A stretch of 40,610 nt of DNA from a virus (IMGVR_UViG_3300048578_000013:1-40610); one strand, 5' to 3'. Positions 4,344 to 38,310 are shown, numbered from the stretch's first letter. Notes: generated from the sequence alone by a model not told the origin. Numbers and translations are program-made.

Positions 4344-4964
4344 ATGGGAGAACAAATGAAACTTGCATTACGCATTCTGGGTAGCCTACCCTTGTGGCTA
4401 GGGTACTGGGTTATGGCAATCCCGTTGTGGATCATCGGAGCCATTACCATCCCGATCATGGCCCGGTTTGCTTCTCGGACGGCCTATAGCCGCCCTAGCA
4501 GGGCCTATGCTGACGGACGGCCCGTGTACTCGTGGAAATGGGACTGGTACAATTACATCTTTGGGAACGAAGAGGACGGTATCTCTGGGGCAGTCTGGTA
4601 CCGCTACGAACATGGTGATTGGACATGGTACAAGCGGACGGTCATGTGGTCCGCGTTCCGGAACCCGACCAATAACATGCGTTTCTGGACATGGTGCAAT
4701 CCCCGCATTAGACCGGACGAAGTAAGGTTTATGGGAGAGCCCGCCCCGGAGGACGCTGGTATTGCTACGGGCAGGTACGTATGGACGTACGTATGGCAAG
4801 GGGCATTCTCCGGACTCAAGCTTGTGATACCGTTCCGTGGCAAGTTCTACCGATTCTGGATCGGCTGGAAGCTTAGACCGGAAGACCGTTATGGGGTTAG
4901 CCCGGACGATTACCGTTTCCCGCGATGCGGATTCGGGACACAATTCAAGAGGATACAAACATGA
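4344..4964 (+). CDS. Membrane protein, unknown function (206 aa)
   Basis: N-terminal TM segments (LPLWLGYWVMAIPLWIIGAITIPIMA) and a Trp/Tyr-rich C-terminal part. Alternative ATG at 4356 has a better SD (GGAG). Confidence 0.6.
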   Translation: MGEQMKLALRILGSLPLWLGYWVMAIPLWIIGAITIPIMARFASRTAYSRPSRAYADGRPVYSWKWDWYNYIFGNEEDGISGAVWYRYEHGDWTWYKRTVMWSAFRNPTNNMRFWTWCNPRIRPDEVRFMGEPAPEDAGIATGRYVWTYVWQGAFSGLKLVIPFRGKFYRFWIGWKLRPEDRYGVSPDDYRFPRCGFGTQFKRIQT

Positions 4965-5143
4965 CCACGCGCGAGGAAGCAGAAGCTGTTTGGCGCAAAG
5001 CGTATGTGCAGCGACTCATGGATGCACACAACTTCAATCTGGAAGATGCGACGGCGCTCGCCGATGCGGGCGATGTCGATCTAGCCATTAAACCAGAGGA
5101 TGCAGCCGATGACGAAATCAGCTACTGGGATGCTGATGAATAG
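4961..5143 (+). CDS. Hypothetical acidic protein (60 aa)
   Basis: ATGA overlap with the upstream stop. The track start 4925 was trimmed. Confidence 0.45.
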   Translation: MTTREEAEAVWRKAYVQRLMDAHNFNLEDATALADAGDVDLAIKPEDAADDEISYWDADE

Positions 5144-35900: not shown

Positions 35901-35979
35901 TGGTACGCCCTGTAGGATTTGAACCCACGTAAGGCCGGGTAGAAACCGGCTGCCTGAGTCCGGGCTAGGCTAAGGGCGC
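35901..35979 (-). tRNA. tRNA-Arg(TCT)
   Basis: AC arm GCCGG-TTTCTAC-CCGGC, D arm GCCT/AGGC with GG, T-loop TTCAAAT, G1-U72, encoded CCA. Confidence 0.8.
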
Positions 35980-35986
35980 ATAAGTT

Positions 35987-36064
35987 TGGAGCGGAATACG
36001 GGAATCGAACCCGTACCTTACGGTTTGGAAGACCGACGCGCTAGCCGTTGAACACCAATTCCGC
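35987..36064 (-). tRNA. tRNA-Gly(TCC)
   Basis: Perfect acceptor GCGGAAT, AC loop CTTCCAA, T arm ACGGG-TTCGATT-CCCGT, D-loop with GG, CCA. Confidence 0.8.
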
Positions 36065-36070
36065 TTTGTG

Positions 36071-36146
36071 TGGTACCTCGTGTAGGAATCGCACCCACAT
36101 CACTTCGCTTAAAAGGCGAGTCTCTGTCTTGCTGAGTTAACGAGGC
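36071..36146 (-). tRNA. tRNA-Lys(TTT), G55 class
   Basis: AC loop CTTTTAA, T arm GTGGG-TGCGATT-CCTAC, D-loop AGCAAGACA without GG, G1-U72, CCA. Confidence 0.6.
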
Positions 36147-36153
36147 ATTATCT

Positions 36154-36228
36154 TGGTGGGCTGCCTAGGGCTCGCGCCTAGCTCTGGAGGTTAAGAGCCA
36201 ACTGCATCGCTATCTATGCTTGCAGCCC
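36154..36228 (-). tRNA. tRNA-like, best anticodon CTT (Lys?), G55 class; possibly degenerate
   Basis: Perfect acceptor GGGCTGC, T arm CTAGG-CGCGAGC-CCTAG, D arm GCAT-AGATAGCG-ATGC. The AC stem has 2 mismatches. Confidence 0.4.
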
Positions 36229-36234
36229 GGAGTT

Positions 36235-36327
36235 TGGTTGCCCTGCGCGGACTCGCACCGCGACCGCGCTCTAATCTGGAGCTACAGGGCTTATAAGGCC
36301 CTCTGTGCTGCTTTACACCACAGGGCT
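36235..36327 (-). tRNA. Long-arm tRNA with anticodon TAT (93 nt), G55 class; identity ambiguous
   Basis: AC arm AGGGC-CTTATAA-GCCCT, ~23-nt variable arm (GCTC-CAGATTA-GAGC), T arm CGCGG-TGCGAGT-CCGCG, A73, A1-A72 mismatch, CCA. Confidence 0.45.
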
Positions 36328-36328
36328 A

Positions 36329-36404
36329 TGGTGCTGCCCCTCCGTTACGCTCGGAGCCATGGCGCTCTTCAGGCGCCCGCTTCCACTAGGTTAGCTTGGG
36401 CAGC
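36329..36404 (-). tRNA. tRNA-Phe(GAA), G55 class
   Basis: Perfect acceptor GCTGCCC, AC arm GGCGC-CTGAAGA-GCGCC, T arm CTCCG-AGCGTAA-CGGAG, CCA. Confidence 0.65.
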
Positions 36405-36413
36405 AATACTAGT

Positions 36414-36725
36414 CTACTCGAATTCTGCCGTATCGTGGAACTGCTTTAGCTGATGTCCGATAGAATCGACAAACTTCTCGTCCGTGTAACTTTTGTGGTT
36501 AGCCACCCAGAGGATTGCGTGGGCTACCTCGTGCCAGAACGCTTGCATGGCTACAGATCGCTTTAGCCTACGGGTTGGTGCCAGTACATAGATAGACAGG
36601 GTATCCGGGTGAAAATACCCGTATGCTTCCTGCCCCCCGGTCAGCTTTACCATTTCCTCAAGGGAAATCTTCTTGACCGTAAATGTATGGCTGCCTAGCT
36701 GGAAGCTAGACGGAATCCTCCGCAT
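36414..36725 (-). CDS. Small HExxH zinc-metallopeptidase-like protein (103 aa) embedded in the tRNA array
   Basis: FWHEVAHAILW motif with downstream Glu (TDEKF). SD GGGGGAG 9 nt upstream. Flanked by tRNA-Asn and tRNA-Phe. Confidence 0.6.
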   Translation of the reverse strand: MRRIPSSFQLGSHTFTVKKISLEEMVKLTGGQEAYGYFHPDTLSIYVLAPTRRLKRSVAMQAFWHEVAHAILWVANHKSYTDEKFVDSIGHQLKQFHDTAEFE

Positions 36726-36745
36726 GGCGTTTTGCTCCCCCTTGA

Positions 36746-36820
36746 TGGCTGTAGCTCTAGGAATCGAACCTAGCTCGCATCCGTTAACAGCGGAGCCGCA
36801 CGCCCTGTGCGTTAGCTACA
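36746..36820 (-). tRNA. tRNA-Asn(GTT)
   Basis: Perfect acceptor TGTAGCT (U1-A72 as in bacterial Asn), AC loop CTGTTAA, T arm CTAGG-TTCGATT-CCTAG, D arm CGCA-CAGGGCG-TGCG, CCA. Confidence 0.8.
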
Positions 36821-36826
36821 ATTGTC

Positions 36827-36900
36827 TGGATGGTCCTCTACGACTCGCACGTAGATTCACGGTTTCAAAGACCGCTGTCCTGCTGTTAGACGAAGGACCA
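36827..36900 (-). tRNA. tRNA-Gln(TTG), G55 class
   Basis: Perfect acceptor TGGTCCT (U1-A72), AC loop CTTTGAA, T arm CTACG-TGCGAGT-CGTAG, D-loop TAACAGCAG without GG, CCA. Confidence 0.65.
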
Positions 36901-36904
36901 GATT

Positions 36905-36979
36905 TGGCTGATTCCCTAGGTCTTGCACCTAGATTTTCCACTTTCAGAGAATGGAGTCCTACTGTTAGACGAGGAATCA
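36905..36979 (-). tRNA. tRNA-Gln(CTG), G55 class
   Basis: Perfect acceptor TGATTCC, AC arm CCATT-CTCTGAA-AGTGG, T arm CTAGG-TGCAAGA-CCTAG. The D arm is paralogous to that of Gln(TTG). Confidence 0.65.
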
Positions 36980-36986
36980 ACATATT

Positions 36987-37058
36987 TGGCAAAGCGACTA
37001 CGAGTTGCACGCAGCTTTCCAGTTTTGGAGACTGGTACCTCACTCCGAGGATCGCCTT
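36987..37058 (-). tRNA. tRNA-Trp(CCA), G55 class
   Basis: AC arm CCAGT-CTCCAAA-ACTGG, T-loop TGCAACT (stem has 1 mismatch), short D arm CCTC-GGAGT-GAGG, A1-U72, CCA. Confidence 0.6.
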
Positions 37059-37064
37059 GTAATA

Positions 37065-37152
37065 TGGTGCAGCATCTTGGAGTCGAACCAAGCAGGCCCG
37101 CTAAGACAACTGGTTTACAGCCAGTTCGGGGTCCGTCCCCGGCTAATGCTAC
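37065..37152 (-). tRNA. tRNA-Tyr(GTA), long variable arm
   Basis: AC arm ACTGG-CTGTAAA-CCAGT, 16-nt variable region, T arm CTTGG-TTCGACT-CCAAG, CCA. Confidence 0.75.
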
Positions 37153-37156
37153 AATC

Positions 37157-37228
37157 TGGGGTGACTAGAGGGTACTGCCCCCTCCGTGGCTCGGTCACAG
37201 CGGGCGTAGCGCCTTGCGCCTAATCACC
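37157..37228 (-). tRNA. tRNA-His(GTG) with encoded G-1, G55 class, mini D-arm
   Basis: AC loop CTGTGAC, extra 5' G opposite C73, T arm GAGGG-GGCAGTA-CCCTC, D arm reduced to GCGC-AAG-GCGC, CCA. Confidence 0.6.
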
Positions 37229-37233
37229 ATAAT

Positions 37234-37310
37234 TGGAGCCTCTGGCCTCGACTTGCACGGGCCGTCTCCTCTTTACAAGAGAGGTACATCGCTATCAATG
37301 TTTCAGAGGC
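37234..37310 (-). tRNA. tRNA-Thr(TGT), G55 class
   Basis: Perfect acceptor GCCTCTG, AC arm CCTCT-CTTGTAA-AGAGG, D arm ACAT-TGATAGCG-ATGT, T-loop TGCAAGT with a bulged stem, CCA. Confidence 0.6.
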
Positions 37311-37318
37311 ATTGATCT

Positions 37319-37393
37319 TGGAGTATCGGGCCAGAATTGCACTGGCATAGATGCGGGTTGCAGCCGATCGCCTAGCTATTCAGCCACCGATAC
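37319..37393 (-). tRNA. tRNA-Cys(GCA)-like, G55 class
   Basis: Perfect acceptor GTATCGG, T arm GCCAG-TGCAATT-CTGGC, AC loop CTGCAAC but only a 3-bp AC stem, reduced D arm. Confidence 0.5.
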
Positions 37394-37394
37394 G

Positions 37395-37471
37395 TGGTAC
37401 ACCTACAGGGTGCTGCCCCCTGTCCAACGGGTTGAAAGCCCGCTATCCTAGCTATCGTAGACGATAGGTGC
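37395..37471 (-). tRNA. tRNA-Glu(TTC), G55 class
   Basis: AC arm GCGGG-CTTTCAA-CCCGT, T arm CAGGG-GGCAGCA-CCCTG, D-loop ACGATAGCT without GG, G1-U72, CCA. Confidence 0.6.
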
Positions 37472-37482
37472 ATCTACTGAAA

Positions 37483-37557
37483 TGGTGGACCGTTTGGGAA
37501 TCGCACCCAACAGGCTAGAATCTTGCAAGGATTCTCCGGGTTCCTAGCCCACAGCCC
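37483..37557 (-). tRNA. tRNA-Ala(TGC) with G3-U70, G55 class
   Basis: Acceptor GGGCTGT/ACGGTCC gives G3-U70. AC arm GAATC-CTTGCAA-GATTC, T arm TTGGG-TGCGATT-CCCAA, short D region, CCA. Confidence 0.65.
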
Positions 37558-37562
37558 AAGTA

Positions 37563-37651
37563 TGGCGGAGAGTAGTGTACTCGAAACACACACGGCTTTA
37601 CCGTGCCCTCTGTTTAGCAAACAGGTCAAGCCCCTAGCTTGTTTGCTCTCC
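37563..37651 (-). tRNA. tRNA-Ser(GCT), long variable arm
   Basis: Acceptor GGAGAGC, AC loop TTGCTAA, variable hairpin CACGG-TAAAG-CCGTG, D arm CAAG-CTAGGGG-CTTG, T-loop TTCGAGT, CCA. Confidence 0.75.
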
Positions 37652-37652
37652 G

Positions 37653-37730
37653 TGGTACGCCCTCCCGGATTCGAGCCGGGAAACATTAGGGTTTGAGCCT
37701 AACAGGTATGCCTATTCCCGTCAAGGGCGC
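37653..37730 (-). tRNA. tRNA with anticodon CAA (Leu codon UUG) but a short variable loop
   Basis: AC arm TTAGG-CTCAAAC-CCTAA, 5-nt variable loop, T arm CCCGG-CTCGAAT-CCGGG. The acceptor is identical to that of Arg(TCT). A73, CCA. Confidence 0.55.
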
Positions 37731-37735
37731 ATTAC

Positions 37736-37807
37736 TGGTACCGTATTAGAGGATTGAACTCTAGCCAGCAGCTTTGTAAGAGCCACGTCCGGCCCACCGG
37801 CTACGGT
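37736..37807 (-). tRNA. tRNA-Val(TAC)
   Basis: AC arm TGGCT-CTTACAA-AGCTG (2 GU), T arm TAGAG-TTCAATC-CTCTA, compact D arm CCGG-TGGG-CCGG, CCA. Confidence 0.65.
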
Positions 37808-37813
37808 ATAATG

Positions 37814-37904
37814 TGGCGGAAGCTACAGGGGTCGAACCTGTACGGGGGTACTAGCCCCTTCCCTGTTTTCAAGACAGATGAGCACGCCAGCTTTGCGAGC
37901 TTCC
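37814..37904 (-). tRNA. tRNA-Ser(TGA), long variable arm
   Basis: Perfect acceptor GGAAGCT, AC loop CTTGAAA, long variable arm, T arm ACAGG-TTCGACC-CCTGT, CCA. Confidence 0.75.
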
Positions 37905-37910
37905 ATTATT

Positions 37911-37984
37911 TGGCGACCCTTACGGGAATCGAACCCGTCTCGCCGAATAGACAGTTCGGCAGCCTCACCAGATGCTTAAAGAGC
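37911..37984 (-). tRNA. tRNA-Asp(GTC), atypical U37
   Basis: AC arm CCGAA-CTGTCTA-TTCGG, T arm ACGGG-TTCGATT-CCCGT. The acceptor has 1 mismatch and 2 GU. CCA. Confidence 0.6.
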
Positions 37985-37986
37985 CG

Positions 37987-38062
37987 TGGTAGCCGTTCTG
38001 GGAATCGAACCCAGTACCGCAAGGTTATCAGCCCTGTGCTCATCCTTATGAGCTTTACGGCT
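37987..38062 (-). tRNA. tRNA-Ile(GAT)
   Basis: AC arm CAGGG-CTGATAA-CCTTG, D arm GCTC-ATAAGGAT-GAGC, T arm CTGGG-TTCGATT-CCCAG, CCA. Confidence 0.8.
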
Positions 38063-38066
38063 AAAT

Positions 38067-38140
38067 TGGTCTCCAGCCGAGGAATCGAACCCCGCTAGCT
38101 GCGCCCCAAACGCAGTGCCCAGCCACTAGGCCAGCCAGAG
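38067..38140 (-). tRNA. tRNA-Pro(TGG)
   Basis: C1-G72, AC arm CTGCG-TTTGGGG-CGCAG (G37), T arm CGGGG-TTCGATT-CCTCG, D-loop with GG, CCA. Confidence 0.8.
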
Positions 38141-38142
38141 AT

Positions 38143-38218
38143 TGGAAGCGGGAGTGGGATTTGCGCCCACGACCTCCGGGTTATGAGCCCGGCGAACTGC
38201 TAACTGTTCTATCCCGCT
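38143..38218 (-). tRNA. tRNA-Met(CAT) (initiator, elongator or Ile2 not distinguishable), G55 class
   Basis: Perfect acceptor AGCGGGA, AC arm CCGGG-CTCATAA-CCCGG, D arm GAAC-AGTTAGCA-GTTC, T arm GTGGG-CGCAAAT-CCCAC, CCA. Confidence 0.65.
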
Positions 38219-38225
38219 ATAAAGT

Positions 38226-38310
38226 TGGTACCCCGCACAGGCATCGAACCTGCATGCCCGAAGGCGCTACGTTCTAAGCGTAGTGTGTCTGCCAATTCCA
38301 CCAACGGGGC
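38226..38310 (-). tRNA. tRNA-Leu(TAG), long variable arm
   Basis: AC arm CTACG-CTTAGAA-CGTAG, variable hairpin GCC-TTCG-GGC, D-loop AATTGGCAGAC (E. coli Leu-like), T-loop TTCGATG, CCA. Confidence 0.8.

Follow-up and report, generated by a model that had tools for sequence, protein, structure and literature searches.

A candidate A18–G55 elbow in tRNA genes of a phage array, related phages and bacterial arrays

Must the elbow of a transfer RNA (tRNA) be built on G18 and U55? Reviews covering the elbow, T-loop modification and non-canonical tRNAs present the contact between G18 and pseudouridine 55 (Psi55) as conserved or universal and include no class carrying A18 and G55 (PMC4810234, PMC7609411, PMC7912444). 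The question is raised by the viral sequence IMGVR_UViG_3300048578_000013:1-40610 (here the window: the whole stretch of 40,610 nucleotides (nt) that was analysed), where thirteen genes of a dense tRNA array have G at position 55. An initial annotation had seen in these genes a systematic elbow variant for which it knew of no description; we likewise found none in the literature searched, although subscription journals lay largely outside that search and an earlier mention is possible.

We report that the G55 tRNAs appear to combine ordinary function with a defined alternative tertiary contact, and that they are widespread and apparently undescribed. Our reading, to which we assign a probability of about 0.75, is that the thirteen genes encode working tRNAs with an elbow built on an A18–G55 contact. 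Such tRNAs would challenge a textbook invariant (U55, G18) with a second defined elbow solution, of a kind that other structured RNAs use, and the variant spans phages, mobile bacterial arrays and the chromosomal initiator tRNAs of Patescibacteria and Muribaculaceae. They would also provide a natural test case for the roles of Psi55, 5-methyluridine 54 (m5U54) and 2′-O-methylguanosine 18 (Gm18) and for asking which factors read the elbow and, in engineering, a compact route to tRNAs independent of T-loop modification.

G55 tRNAs and their covarying D-loops

The array comprises 25 tRNA genes on the minus strand (35901–38310), identified with a relaxed cloverleaf scan and reading by eye, and CCA is encoded at the 3′ end of all 25. 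Twenty-six genes had originally been counted, thirteen variant and thirteen with a TTCRANN T-loop. The variant count stands, but the total is 25 and the canonical genes number twelve (one of them reading CTCGAAT), because the spacers, at 1–11 nt with a single exception of 341 nt, are too tight for a twenty-sixth gene; nothing was found elsewhere in the window.

All thirteen variant T-loops follow the pattern NGCRNNN with the sequences first reported, as the cloverleaf scan and inspection by eye agree, and position 55 is G in every one, none fitting TTC. Four of these genes score above the 29-bit gathering threshold of the Rfam tRNA model (RF00005), a covariance model that scores sequence and structure jointly and was built independently of them: the initiator-type tRNA-Met(CAU) (38143–38218, G55 at 38164, T-loop CGCAAAT, D-loop AGTTAGCA with A18 and G19; 60.4 bits), tRNA-Gln(UUG) (36827–36900, G55 at 36848, TGCGAGT, D-loop AACAGCA; 48.6 bits), tRNA-Lys(UUU) (36071–36146, G55 at 36092, TGCGATT, D-loop AGCAAGACA; 40.6 bits) and tRNA-Cys(GCA) (37319–37393, G55 at 37340, TGCAATT, D-loop GAATAGCTA; 36.8 bits). 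The remaining nine fall below the threshold, as do several canonical genes of the array. ARAGORN and the cloverleaf scan both recover tRNA-Ala(UGC) (37483–37557, G55 at 37504, D-loop CTAGGAA), whose T-loop TGCGATT is that of Lys-UUU, tRNA-Gln(CUG) (36905–36979, G55 at 36926, TGCAAGA, D-loop AACAGTA) and a type-II-like tRNA with anticodon UAU (36235–36327, G55 at 36256, D-loop AAAGCA), which shares TGCGAGT with Gln-UUG. The cloverleaf scan finds tRNA-Glu(UUC) (37395–37471, G55 at 37416, GGCAGCA with G54 and G58), tRNA-His(GUG) (37157–37228, G55 at 37178, GGCAGTA), tRNA-Trp(CCA) (36987–37058, G55 at 37008, TGCAACT, short D-loop GGAGT) and tRNA-Phe(GAA) (36329–36404, G55 at 36350, AGCGTAA with A54 and U58). 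To these are added tRNA-Thr(UGU) (37234–37310, G55 at 37256, TGCAAGT, D-loop TGATAGCG) and a tRNA with anticodon CUU that was read by eye (36154–36228, G55 at 36175, CGCGAGC, D-loop AGATAGCG). In five-nucleotide form the loops are UGCRA (8), CGCRA (2), GGCAG (2) and AGCGU (1), and U54 is kept in eight of the thirteen.

Realignment with the covariance model leaves the loops as G55. Initiator Met, Gln-UUG, Lys and Cys, aligned in full, have A at the place of G18, G at G19, G at U55 and C at C56. An alternative alignment restoring TTC was sought and rejected, since the T-stems frame the loops unambiguously and Rfam puts G at U55. Those stems are all of five base pairs (bp); the bulged A reported for Thr is present, but the mismatch reported for Trp is a G–U pair, with another in Lys.

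The D-loop follows position 55. A GG dinucleotide is present in the D-loops of all twelve U55 tRNAs and absent from ten of the thirteen G55 tRNAs, in agreement with the first description, and an A-G dinucleotide occurs in the D-loops of all thirteen. The covariation therefore stands, but "loss of GG" misdescribes it: given A at 18 and G at 19 in the Rfam alignment, the change is specifically a G18-to-A18 swap and the D-loop partner is not lost. Conserved G18 and U55 are thus both replaced in the G55 genes, with G19 and C56 kept.

Each of the thirteen fits a standard cloverleaf (7-bp acceptor stem, D-arm, 5-bp anticodon stem, 7-nt loop with U33, 5-bp T-stem and CCA), apart from the T-stem bulge of Thr, a bulge in the anticodon stem of Cys and a weak anticodon stem in the CUU tRNA. 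The identity marks described earlier (G-1:C73 in His, G3:U70 in Ala, U1-A72 in Gln) were all found, as was the GCGC-AAG-GCGC mini-hairpin in the D-arm of His.

Might these genes nevertheless be decayed remnants under relaxed selection? ARAGORN recovers 16 of the 25 array genes and misses 9, the Rfam model recovers about ten above threshold and misses about 15, the D-arms of His, Glu and Ala are odd and the CUU gene has its weak anticodon stem. Against decay, the base that replaces U55 is G throughout, with no A or C, C56, R57 and the covariation of 54 with 58 are kept, and CCA and the identity elements are intact. The same array occurs in nine more contigs from sewage and other samples, at 97.7–100% identity, and the differences among these strains include four paired, mutually compensating substitutions in the tRNA-Thr anticodon stem, a G-C to U-A change at 29:41 of tRNA-Phe and a G-C to A-U change in the T-stem of the UAU tRNA (36261/36247). 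Positions 18 and 55 are invariant within this strain population, in which C and T both occur at position 20 of initiator Met and at position 54 of the CUU tRNA. The compensatory stem changes argue that the G55 genes are not pseudogenes, and the substitution pattern shows the signature of purifying selection on them; the same genes are kept in distant relatives, phages with a terminase only 47% identical, and the pattern recurs in hundreds of independent tRNAs. We consider decay extremely unlikely. The failures of ARAGORN and Rfam mean instead that tallies of tRNAs in phages and arrays are probably too low.

Related phages, ordered by terminase identity as a graded homolog family, show the two classes replacing one another. 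The sole tRNA of contig L016 (terminase 89% identical) is a Gln-UUG of G55 type. Contig L018 (81%) has a tRNA-Glu with the G55 T-loop GGCAGCA, its acceptor-stem changes compensated, and its Gln-UUG is canonical (AATTGGCA / TTCGAGT) where the window has AACAGCA / TGCGAGT and contig L068 again has the G55 type. L068 belongs with L099–L101 to a group (terminase 47% identical) bearing an array of about 27 tRNAs, many recognisably the same genes as in the window but with different class membership: 10 of the 19 window/L068 pairs with the same anticodon differ in class. Lys-UUU, Ala, initiator Met, Gln-CUG, Trp and Glu are G55 in the window and U55 in L068, where Cys has C55; Leu-UAG, a class-I tRNA with anticodon CAA and Ile-GAU are U55 in the window and G55 in L068. 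In every switched pair the change at 55 is matched by one between G-G and A-G in the D-loop, in both directions. Thus the Lys ortholog (84% identical) reads AGCGGGACA / TTCGATT in L068 against AGCAAGACA in the window D-loop, the Ala ortholog (78% identical) has the canonical CAGGGCA / TTCGAGT, and Cys reads GAATGGCTA / TCCGACC against GAATAGCTA. In the opposite direction, Leu-UAG in L068 is GAACAGCAGA / TGCAACT (D-loop ACAGCA, against ATTGGCA in the window), the Ile-GAU counterpart AAGTAGAA / GGCAGTT and the CAA ortholog ..AATAGCAGA / TGCAACT. Because L068 assigns the classes otherwise, the near-complete division of amino acids between classes noted earlier in the window is without meaning. 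The counterpart of the CUU tRNA in L068 is well formed, and the UAU tRNA is conserved there and in L108.

L108 is an unrelated, AT-rich phage contig of 64.6 kilobases (kb) in which 20 of 21 tRNAs are G55, with D-loops such as AATAGTA, and the sole U55 tRNA has GG. Streptomyces phage Moab has a canonical homolog of its Arg-UCG, with TGG in the D-loop where L108 has CAG. A scan with the 16-mer TGGTGTAAAGCAGCAC gave mostly chance matches, only L108 and the L068 group being real. No close relative of the array was found among cultured phages; canonical elbows were seen in the formylmethionine (fMet) tRNA of Stenotrophomonas phage QDWS359, in huge phage LR745206 and in Moab.

The same association holds in a sample of 465 unique CCA-ending tRNAs from the window and other loci. 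Among 344 G55 tRNAs, 310 have no GG in the D-loop (299 of these with A-G), compared with 6 of 102 U55 tRNAs, the other 96 having GG. Initiator-type tRNAs taken separately give 103 without GG and 101 with A-G out of 114 unique foldable G55 sequences, and GG in 97 of 98 U55 controls among the matches listed. Covariation of 54 with 58, claimed for the window, is borne out there and in the 344 G55 tRNAs (UA 182, GG 63, AU 46, CA 25), in which a purine invariably occupies 57. The covariance-model alignments, the joint switches in orthologs and this large-sample association together support a D-loop/T-loop elbow that is systematically rewired, with 55 covarying with the D-loop.

A different contact could in principle underlie this association, namely an antiparallel Watson–Crick mini-helix of G19:C56 and C20:G55 instead of A18–G55. 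Many D-loops in the window read A-G-C (AGTTAGCA, AACAGCA, TGATAGCG), and 5′-GC-3′ is self-complementary. The base after A-G nevertheless varies among the G55 tRNAs (C 136, A 79, U 75) and is C/T polymorphic in this population's own initiator tRNA; a position so unconstrained excludes the C20:G55 pair, and it is the adenine before the G that tracks G55. We judge the mini-helix very improbable and retain the A18–G55 contact.

A proposed A18–G55 elbow

In tRNA, residue 18 is the intercalating base, lying between T-loop residues 57 and 58 and contacting 55 (PMC4810234); the surface that the elbow exposes is made by the pairing of G19 with C56 (PMC4810234; PMC7912444). T-loops outside tRNA have the consensus YGNRA, and their inserted base is almost always an adenosine, joined to the sugar edge of the second-position G by two hydrogen bonds; a GGAAG T-loop is known from ribosomal RNA (rRNA), and tRNA is exceptional in having U at position 2 (bioRxiv 10.1101/2022.12.26.521914). 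In sequence, the G55 T-loops match the generic motif, which has a non-canonical pair between positions 1 and 5, U or G at 2 and a purine at 4, and the covariation of A18 with G55 fits an adenosine intercalated between motif positions 4 and 5.

We therefore propose that A18, standing in for G18, would insert between residues 57 and 58 and find its partner at the T-loop turn in G55, which replaces U55 (pseudouridine in cells). The outer Watson–Crick pair G19:C56 would be kept, as would the pairing of 54 with 58 and a purine at 57, and the T-loop would shift from the tRNA form UUCRA to the generic form YGNRA or GGNAG. The L-shape and the flat G19:C56 face should persist. On this model the two elbow states would be allowed forms of a single tertiary pair, interconverting only by a double change. 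The loops UGCRA, CGCRA and GGCAG, taken with A18, suggest that the general T-loop solution has been adopted and G19:C56 kept; the three-dimensional geometry, charging and translational use of the G55 tRNAs we infer from their sequences.

Some consequences for the proteins that act on the elbow would follow. The prediction that the targets of TruB and TrmA are removed holds for TruB, the Psi55 synthase, which would have no substrate with U55 gone; the U54 target of TrmA is not lost throughout, as it stays in the eight tRNAs noted above. With G18 gone there would be no substrate for TrmH, the Gm18 methylase. It had also been suggested that recognition by RNase P, the ribosomal L1 stalk and T-boxes could be altered, but with only G18 changed and G19 kept, the G19:C56 stacking platform on which they rely would be retained.

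Several observations weigh against this model or limit the pairing rule behind it. The association of position 55 with the D-loop in the large sample has a Fisher's exact p of 5e-60, a value that makes no correction for shared ancestry. About 10% of the G55 tRNAs (34 of 344) have GG, mostly as A-G-G and partly through parsing errors, and G55 stands with a normal GG in L134, L136, L155, L183 and L199, so the rule is not absolute; such sequences are as expected of one-step intermediates or of errors. Three of the thirteen window genes (Ala, Phe and Trp) carry GG besides A-G in the D-loop, which makes the assignment of residue 18 uncertain in them, and the CUU tRNA, possibly in decay, forms just three of the five pairs of its anticodon stem. 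In the yeast suppressor tRNA SUP4oc no single G18–U55 change was tolerated, function being abolished, and G18A was reportedly rescued only by U20G (PMC4117946), so the double change may not be functional in every tRNA or organism. Since single changes abolish function there, the intermediate states are likely to be harmful, and that joint switches recur is notable whether the variant is near-neutral or adaptive.

The G55 tRNAs share with the canonical elbow (G18–Psi55, G19–C56, T54–A58) the cloverleaf, a 5-bp T-stem and 7-nt T-loop, G19:C56, R57, a 54:58 pair, identity elements and CCA; they differ in having A18 with G55, which allows neither Psi55 nor Gm18, and tRNA finders score them low or miss them. 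With the generic T-loops of flavin mononucleotide (FMN) and cobalamin riboswitches, rRNA and RNase P they share U/C-G-N-R-A or G-G-N-A-G and an adenine inserted from a partner loop, but here the motif lies within tRNA, its position 3 still makes a Watson–Crick pair with G19, and its geometry is predicted from sequence alone. Mitochondrial type II tRNAs and tRNA-Pyl also dispense with G18G19 and T-Psi-C, but there the contact is lost or idiosyncratic (PMC7609411), whereas the G55 tRNAs keep a defined covarying contact; with G19 and C56 retained and 18 covarying with 55, they do not belong among the elbow-less tRNAs.

Two further departures from the usual elbow came to light. In tRNA-Arg(UCU) of L068 (2065–2140) the T-loop is TTTGAAT and the D-loop AGAGAACA, which looks like A19:U56 in place of G19:C56. 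Verrucomicrobiaceae arrays contain about a dozen tRNAs in which G55 is followed by A56 in the T-loop (CGAAACT is one) and the D-loop takes forms such as AATGTATA.

Carriers of the variant and its possible causes

A scan for an initiator-type anticodon arm followed by a G55 T-loop matched 92 stretches in 185,579 bacterial and archaeal species (one genome each) and 76 in IMG/VR. A database search of this kind for xGCRA T-loops had been proposed at the outset, and it shows the variant to be widespread and not confined to this phage. Many Patescibacteria have a chromosomal G55 initiator tRNA, which in a complete 644-kb Paceibacterota chromosome stands beside a GatA-like amidase and other tRNAs; in Muribaculaceae, Prevotella and other Bacteroidales it lies near an RluA-type synthase, RmuC and a patatin-like gene. 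In some 35 species (Verrucomicrobiaceae, Prosthecobacter, Akkermansia) the G55 gene sits in a dense array that numbers up to 23 tRNAs with encoded CCA, almost all of them G55 and reaching 13 of 13 by ARAGORN in Verrucomicrobiaceae, where tRNA-Glu-UUC is usually canonical and takes the G55 form in L188 and L220. The annotated tRNA-Met of the cultured Campylobacter phages CP8, CPX and CP81 has G55 and A18, and a search of a plasmid collection returned nothing relevant. The main carriers are dense CCA-encoding arrays, in phages and on bacterial chromosomes, together with some chromosomal initiator tRNAs.

Known tRNA arrays, both L-arrays and phage clusters, are likewise dense and on one strand, with more than 20 supernumerary and horizontally spread genes and sometimes small open reading frames (ORFs) inside (PMC4758250, PMC8421152), and long supernumerary arrays have been described in Verrucomicrobia and other phyla (PMC8421152). 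We found no mention in these papers of an elbow variant, of which arrays are here the main carriers.

Genes for Ro60/TROVE and RlaP adjoin the G55 arrays of Verrucomicrobiaceae in many species; RlaP, a nucleotidyltransferase, has been linked to tRNA repair after damage (PMC12776372). The arrangement of an array followed by Ro60/TROVE and RlaP is seen in L154 (3105–5500) and in L215, L176, L206, L196, L179, L186, L159, L190, L145 and L164, and TROVE-like genes lie close to tRNA arrays on the viral contigs L255 and L238. From this proximity the G55 arrays may be backup tRNAs for situations of RNA damage.

The same neighbourhood suggests that the G55 genes might not be adaptors at all but non-translational, tRNA-like RNAs such as nuclease decoys, Ro60-type partners or primers, as bacterial Y RNAs encoded beside Ro60 genes mimic tRNA (PMC4201824). 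Against this stand complete cloverleaves, 7-nt anticodon loops with U33, G-1 in His, G3:U70 in Ala and the encoded CCA; the two classes in the window together span the amino acids with little overlap, and chromosomal initiator-type tRNAs outside phages share the elbow. We regard such a role as very improbable, and working tRNAs remain our reading.

Why, then, would working tRNAs adopt this elbow? The variant may be near-neutral, 18:55 being an ordinary compensatory pair that is held at G–U in cellular tRNAs by the enzymes that read it and is freer to drift in phage and supernumerary tRNAs. In keeping with this, related phages show flips in either direction, and arrays mix the two classes.

Alternatively, the elbow may be an adaptive escape, unseen by T-loop toxins or defence nucleases and by TruB, TrmA and TrmH, or folding without Psi55, m5U54 and Gm18. 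Phage and spare tRNAs would then work when host tRNAs are attacked or modification is limiting. Such an account of why the variant exists is compatible with the structural explanation, but we think it less likely than not. Phage tRNAs reportedly dodge anticodon nucleases by mutations in the anticodon loop, a precedent that the G55 tRNAs resemble in being phage-encoded and deviating systematically from host-like sequence at a functional site, and from which they differ in that the change lies in the elbow and no nuclease is linked to it. Also in favour are the concentration of the variant in phage and long bacterial arrays (20 of 21 tRNAs in L108, up to 13 of 13 in Verrucomicrobiaceae), the adjoining Ro60/TROVE and RlaP genes, the latter with its part in damaged-tRNA repair (PMC12776372), and the induction of long tRNA arrays by translational stress in Anabaena (PMC8421152). 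On the other side, this analysis identified no elbow-discriminating nuclease or enzyme, and no tRNA-directed enzyme was found in the window; the variant is limited to half of the tRNAs of this phage; orthologs flip both ways, as near-neutral compensatory change predicts; and the variant also occurs in chromosomal initiator tRNAs outside phage and array contexts. In its fullest form, which we think doubtful although conceivable, A18–G55 tRNAs would make up a horizontally circulating pool of spares, with an elbow selected to escape T-loop tRNases, TruB, TrmA and TrmH, that keeps translation running in tRNA-targeting conflicts and is used by phages and by Ro60/RlaP-linked arrays.

The rest of the array and genome

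The window is essentially an entire phage genome of about 40.6 kb, and its sequence is identical to the Joint Genome Institute (JGI) metagenome contig L006, which has 40,667 bases. Its recognised products are a family-A DNA polymerase, a DnaB-type helicase, a T7-type endonuclease I, a 5′–3′ exonuclease and a deoxynucleoside monophosphate (dNMP) kinase, together with GH108 lysozymes, a large terminase, an SU10-type portal and adaptor and a capsid protein. Among all the genes of the window, none was found for an enzyme that modifies, processes or otherwise targets tRNA. With 25 genes in 2,410 bases on one strand, the array qualifies as a tRNA array unit, for which the minimum is 20 tRNA genes at two or more per kb (PMC4758250).

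The 341-nt spacer houses an ORF of 103 amino acids (36414–36725, minus strand) with an HExxH-like motif, HEVAH. Its product has no Pfam match and no sequence match in the PDB, only one to phrog_1233 (function unknown), and the protein is identical across 24 contigs.

The twelve U55 genes, also on the minus strand, are interspersed with the others. ARAGORN and the cloverleaf scan agree on tRNA-Leu(UAG) (38226–38310; T-loop TTCGATG, D-loop GAATTGGCAGA), tRNA-Pro(UGG) (38067–38140; TTCGATT), type II tRNA-Ser(UGA) (37814–37904; TTCGACC), type II tRNA-Tyr(GUA) (37065–37152), tRNA-Asn(GUU) (36746–36820) and tRNA-Gly(UCC) (35987–36064). Four are seen by Rfam as well: tRNA-Ile(GAU) (37987–38062; TTCGATT, D-loop ATAAGGAT), tRNA-Asp(GUC) (37911–37985), the class-I tRNA with anticodon CAA and a Leu-like D-arm (37653–37730; CTCGAAT, D-loop ..AATAGGCATA) and tRNA-Arg(UCU) (35901–35979; TTCAAAT). 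For tRNA-Val(UAC) (37736–37807; TTCAATC) ARAGORN gives a start of 37814, and type II tRNA-Ser(GCU) (37563–37651; TTCGAGT) was read by eye, being missed by both ARAGORN and Rfam.

The size of the array differs sharply among relatives. L016, L017 and L018, with terminases 81–89% identical to that of the window, have one or two tRNAs at the place where the window has 25, and the tRNAs common to the window and L068 are 75–88% identical although the terminases are only 47% identical. Given so few tRNAs in close relatives, and tRNA identity above terminase identity, the array seems to move or expand as a module.

Several individual tRNAs have peculiarities of their own. The UAU tRNA has a variable arm of 23 nt, A73 and a D-arm resembling that of Leu tRNAs (TGGTGTAAAGCAGCACAG), and this D-arm is identical in two unrelated phage groups (L068, 2387–2479; L108, reverse strand, 4932–5024); it could insert an amino acid other than Ile at AUA. 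Genes for allo-tRNA(UAU) are reportedly abundant in soil metagenomes (PMC7609411). In tRNA-Thr (37234–37310) A8 stands with U14, the reverse of the usual U8:A14, and its T-arm, including the bulged A of the stem, is conserved in L068 and L100–L103. For the CUU tRNA (36154–36228) the predicted minimum-energy fold pairs GCTCT with AGAGC in an alternative stem of 5 bp that encloses an 8-nt loop (TAACCTCC). To our knowledge the class II form is universal among bacterial Leu tRNAs, but class-I tRNAs with Leu anticodons (CAA, UAG, CAG), Leu-like D-arms and a short 5-nt variable loop are found in the window (37653–37730, minus strand), in L068 (3046–3122), in L062 (1749–1825) and in Verrucomicrobiaceae arrays such as L178.

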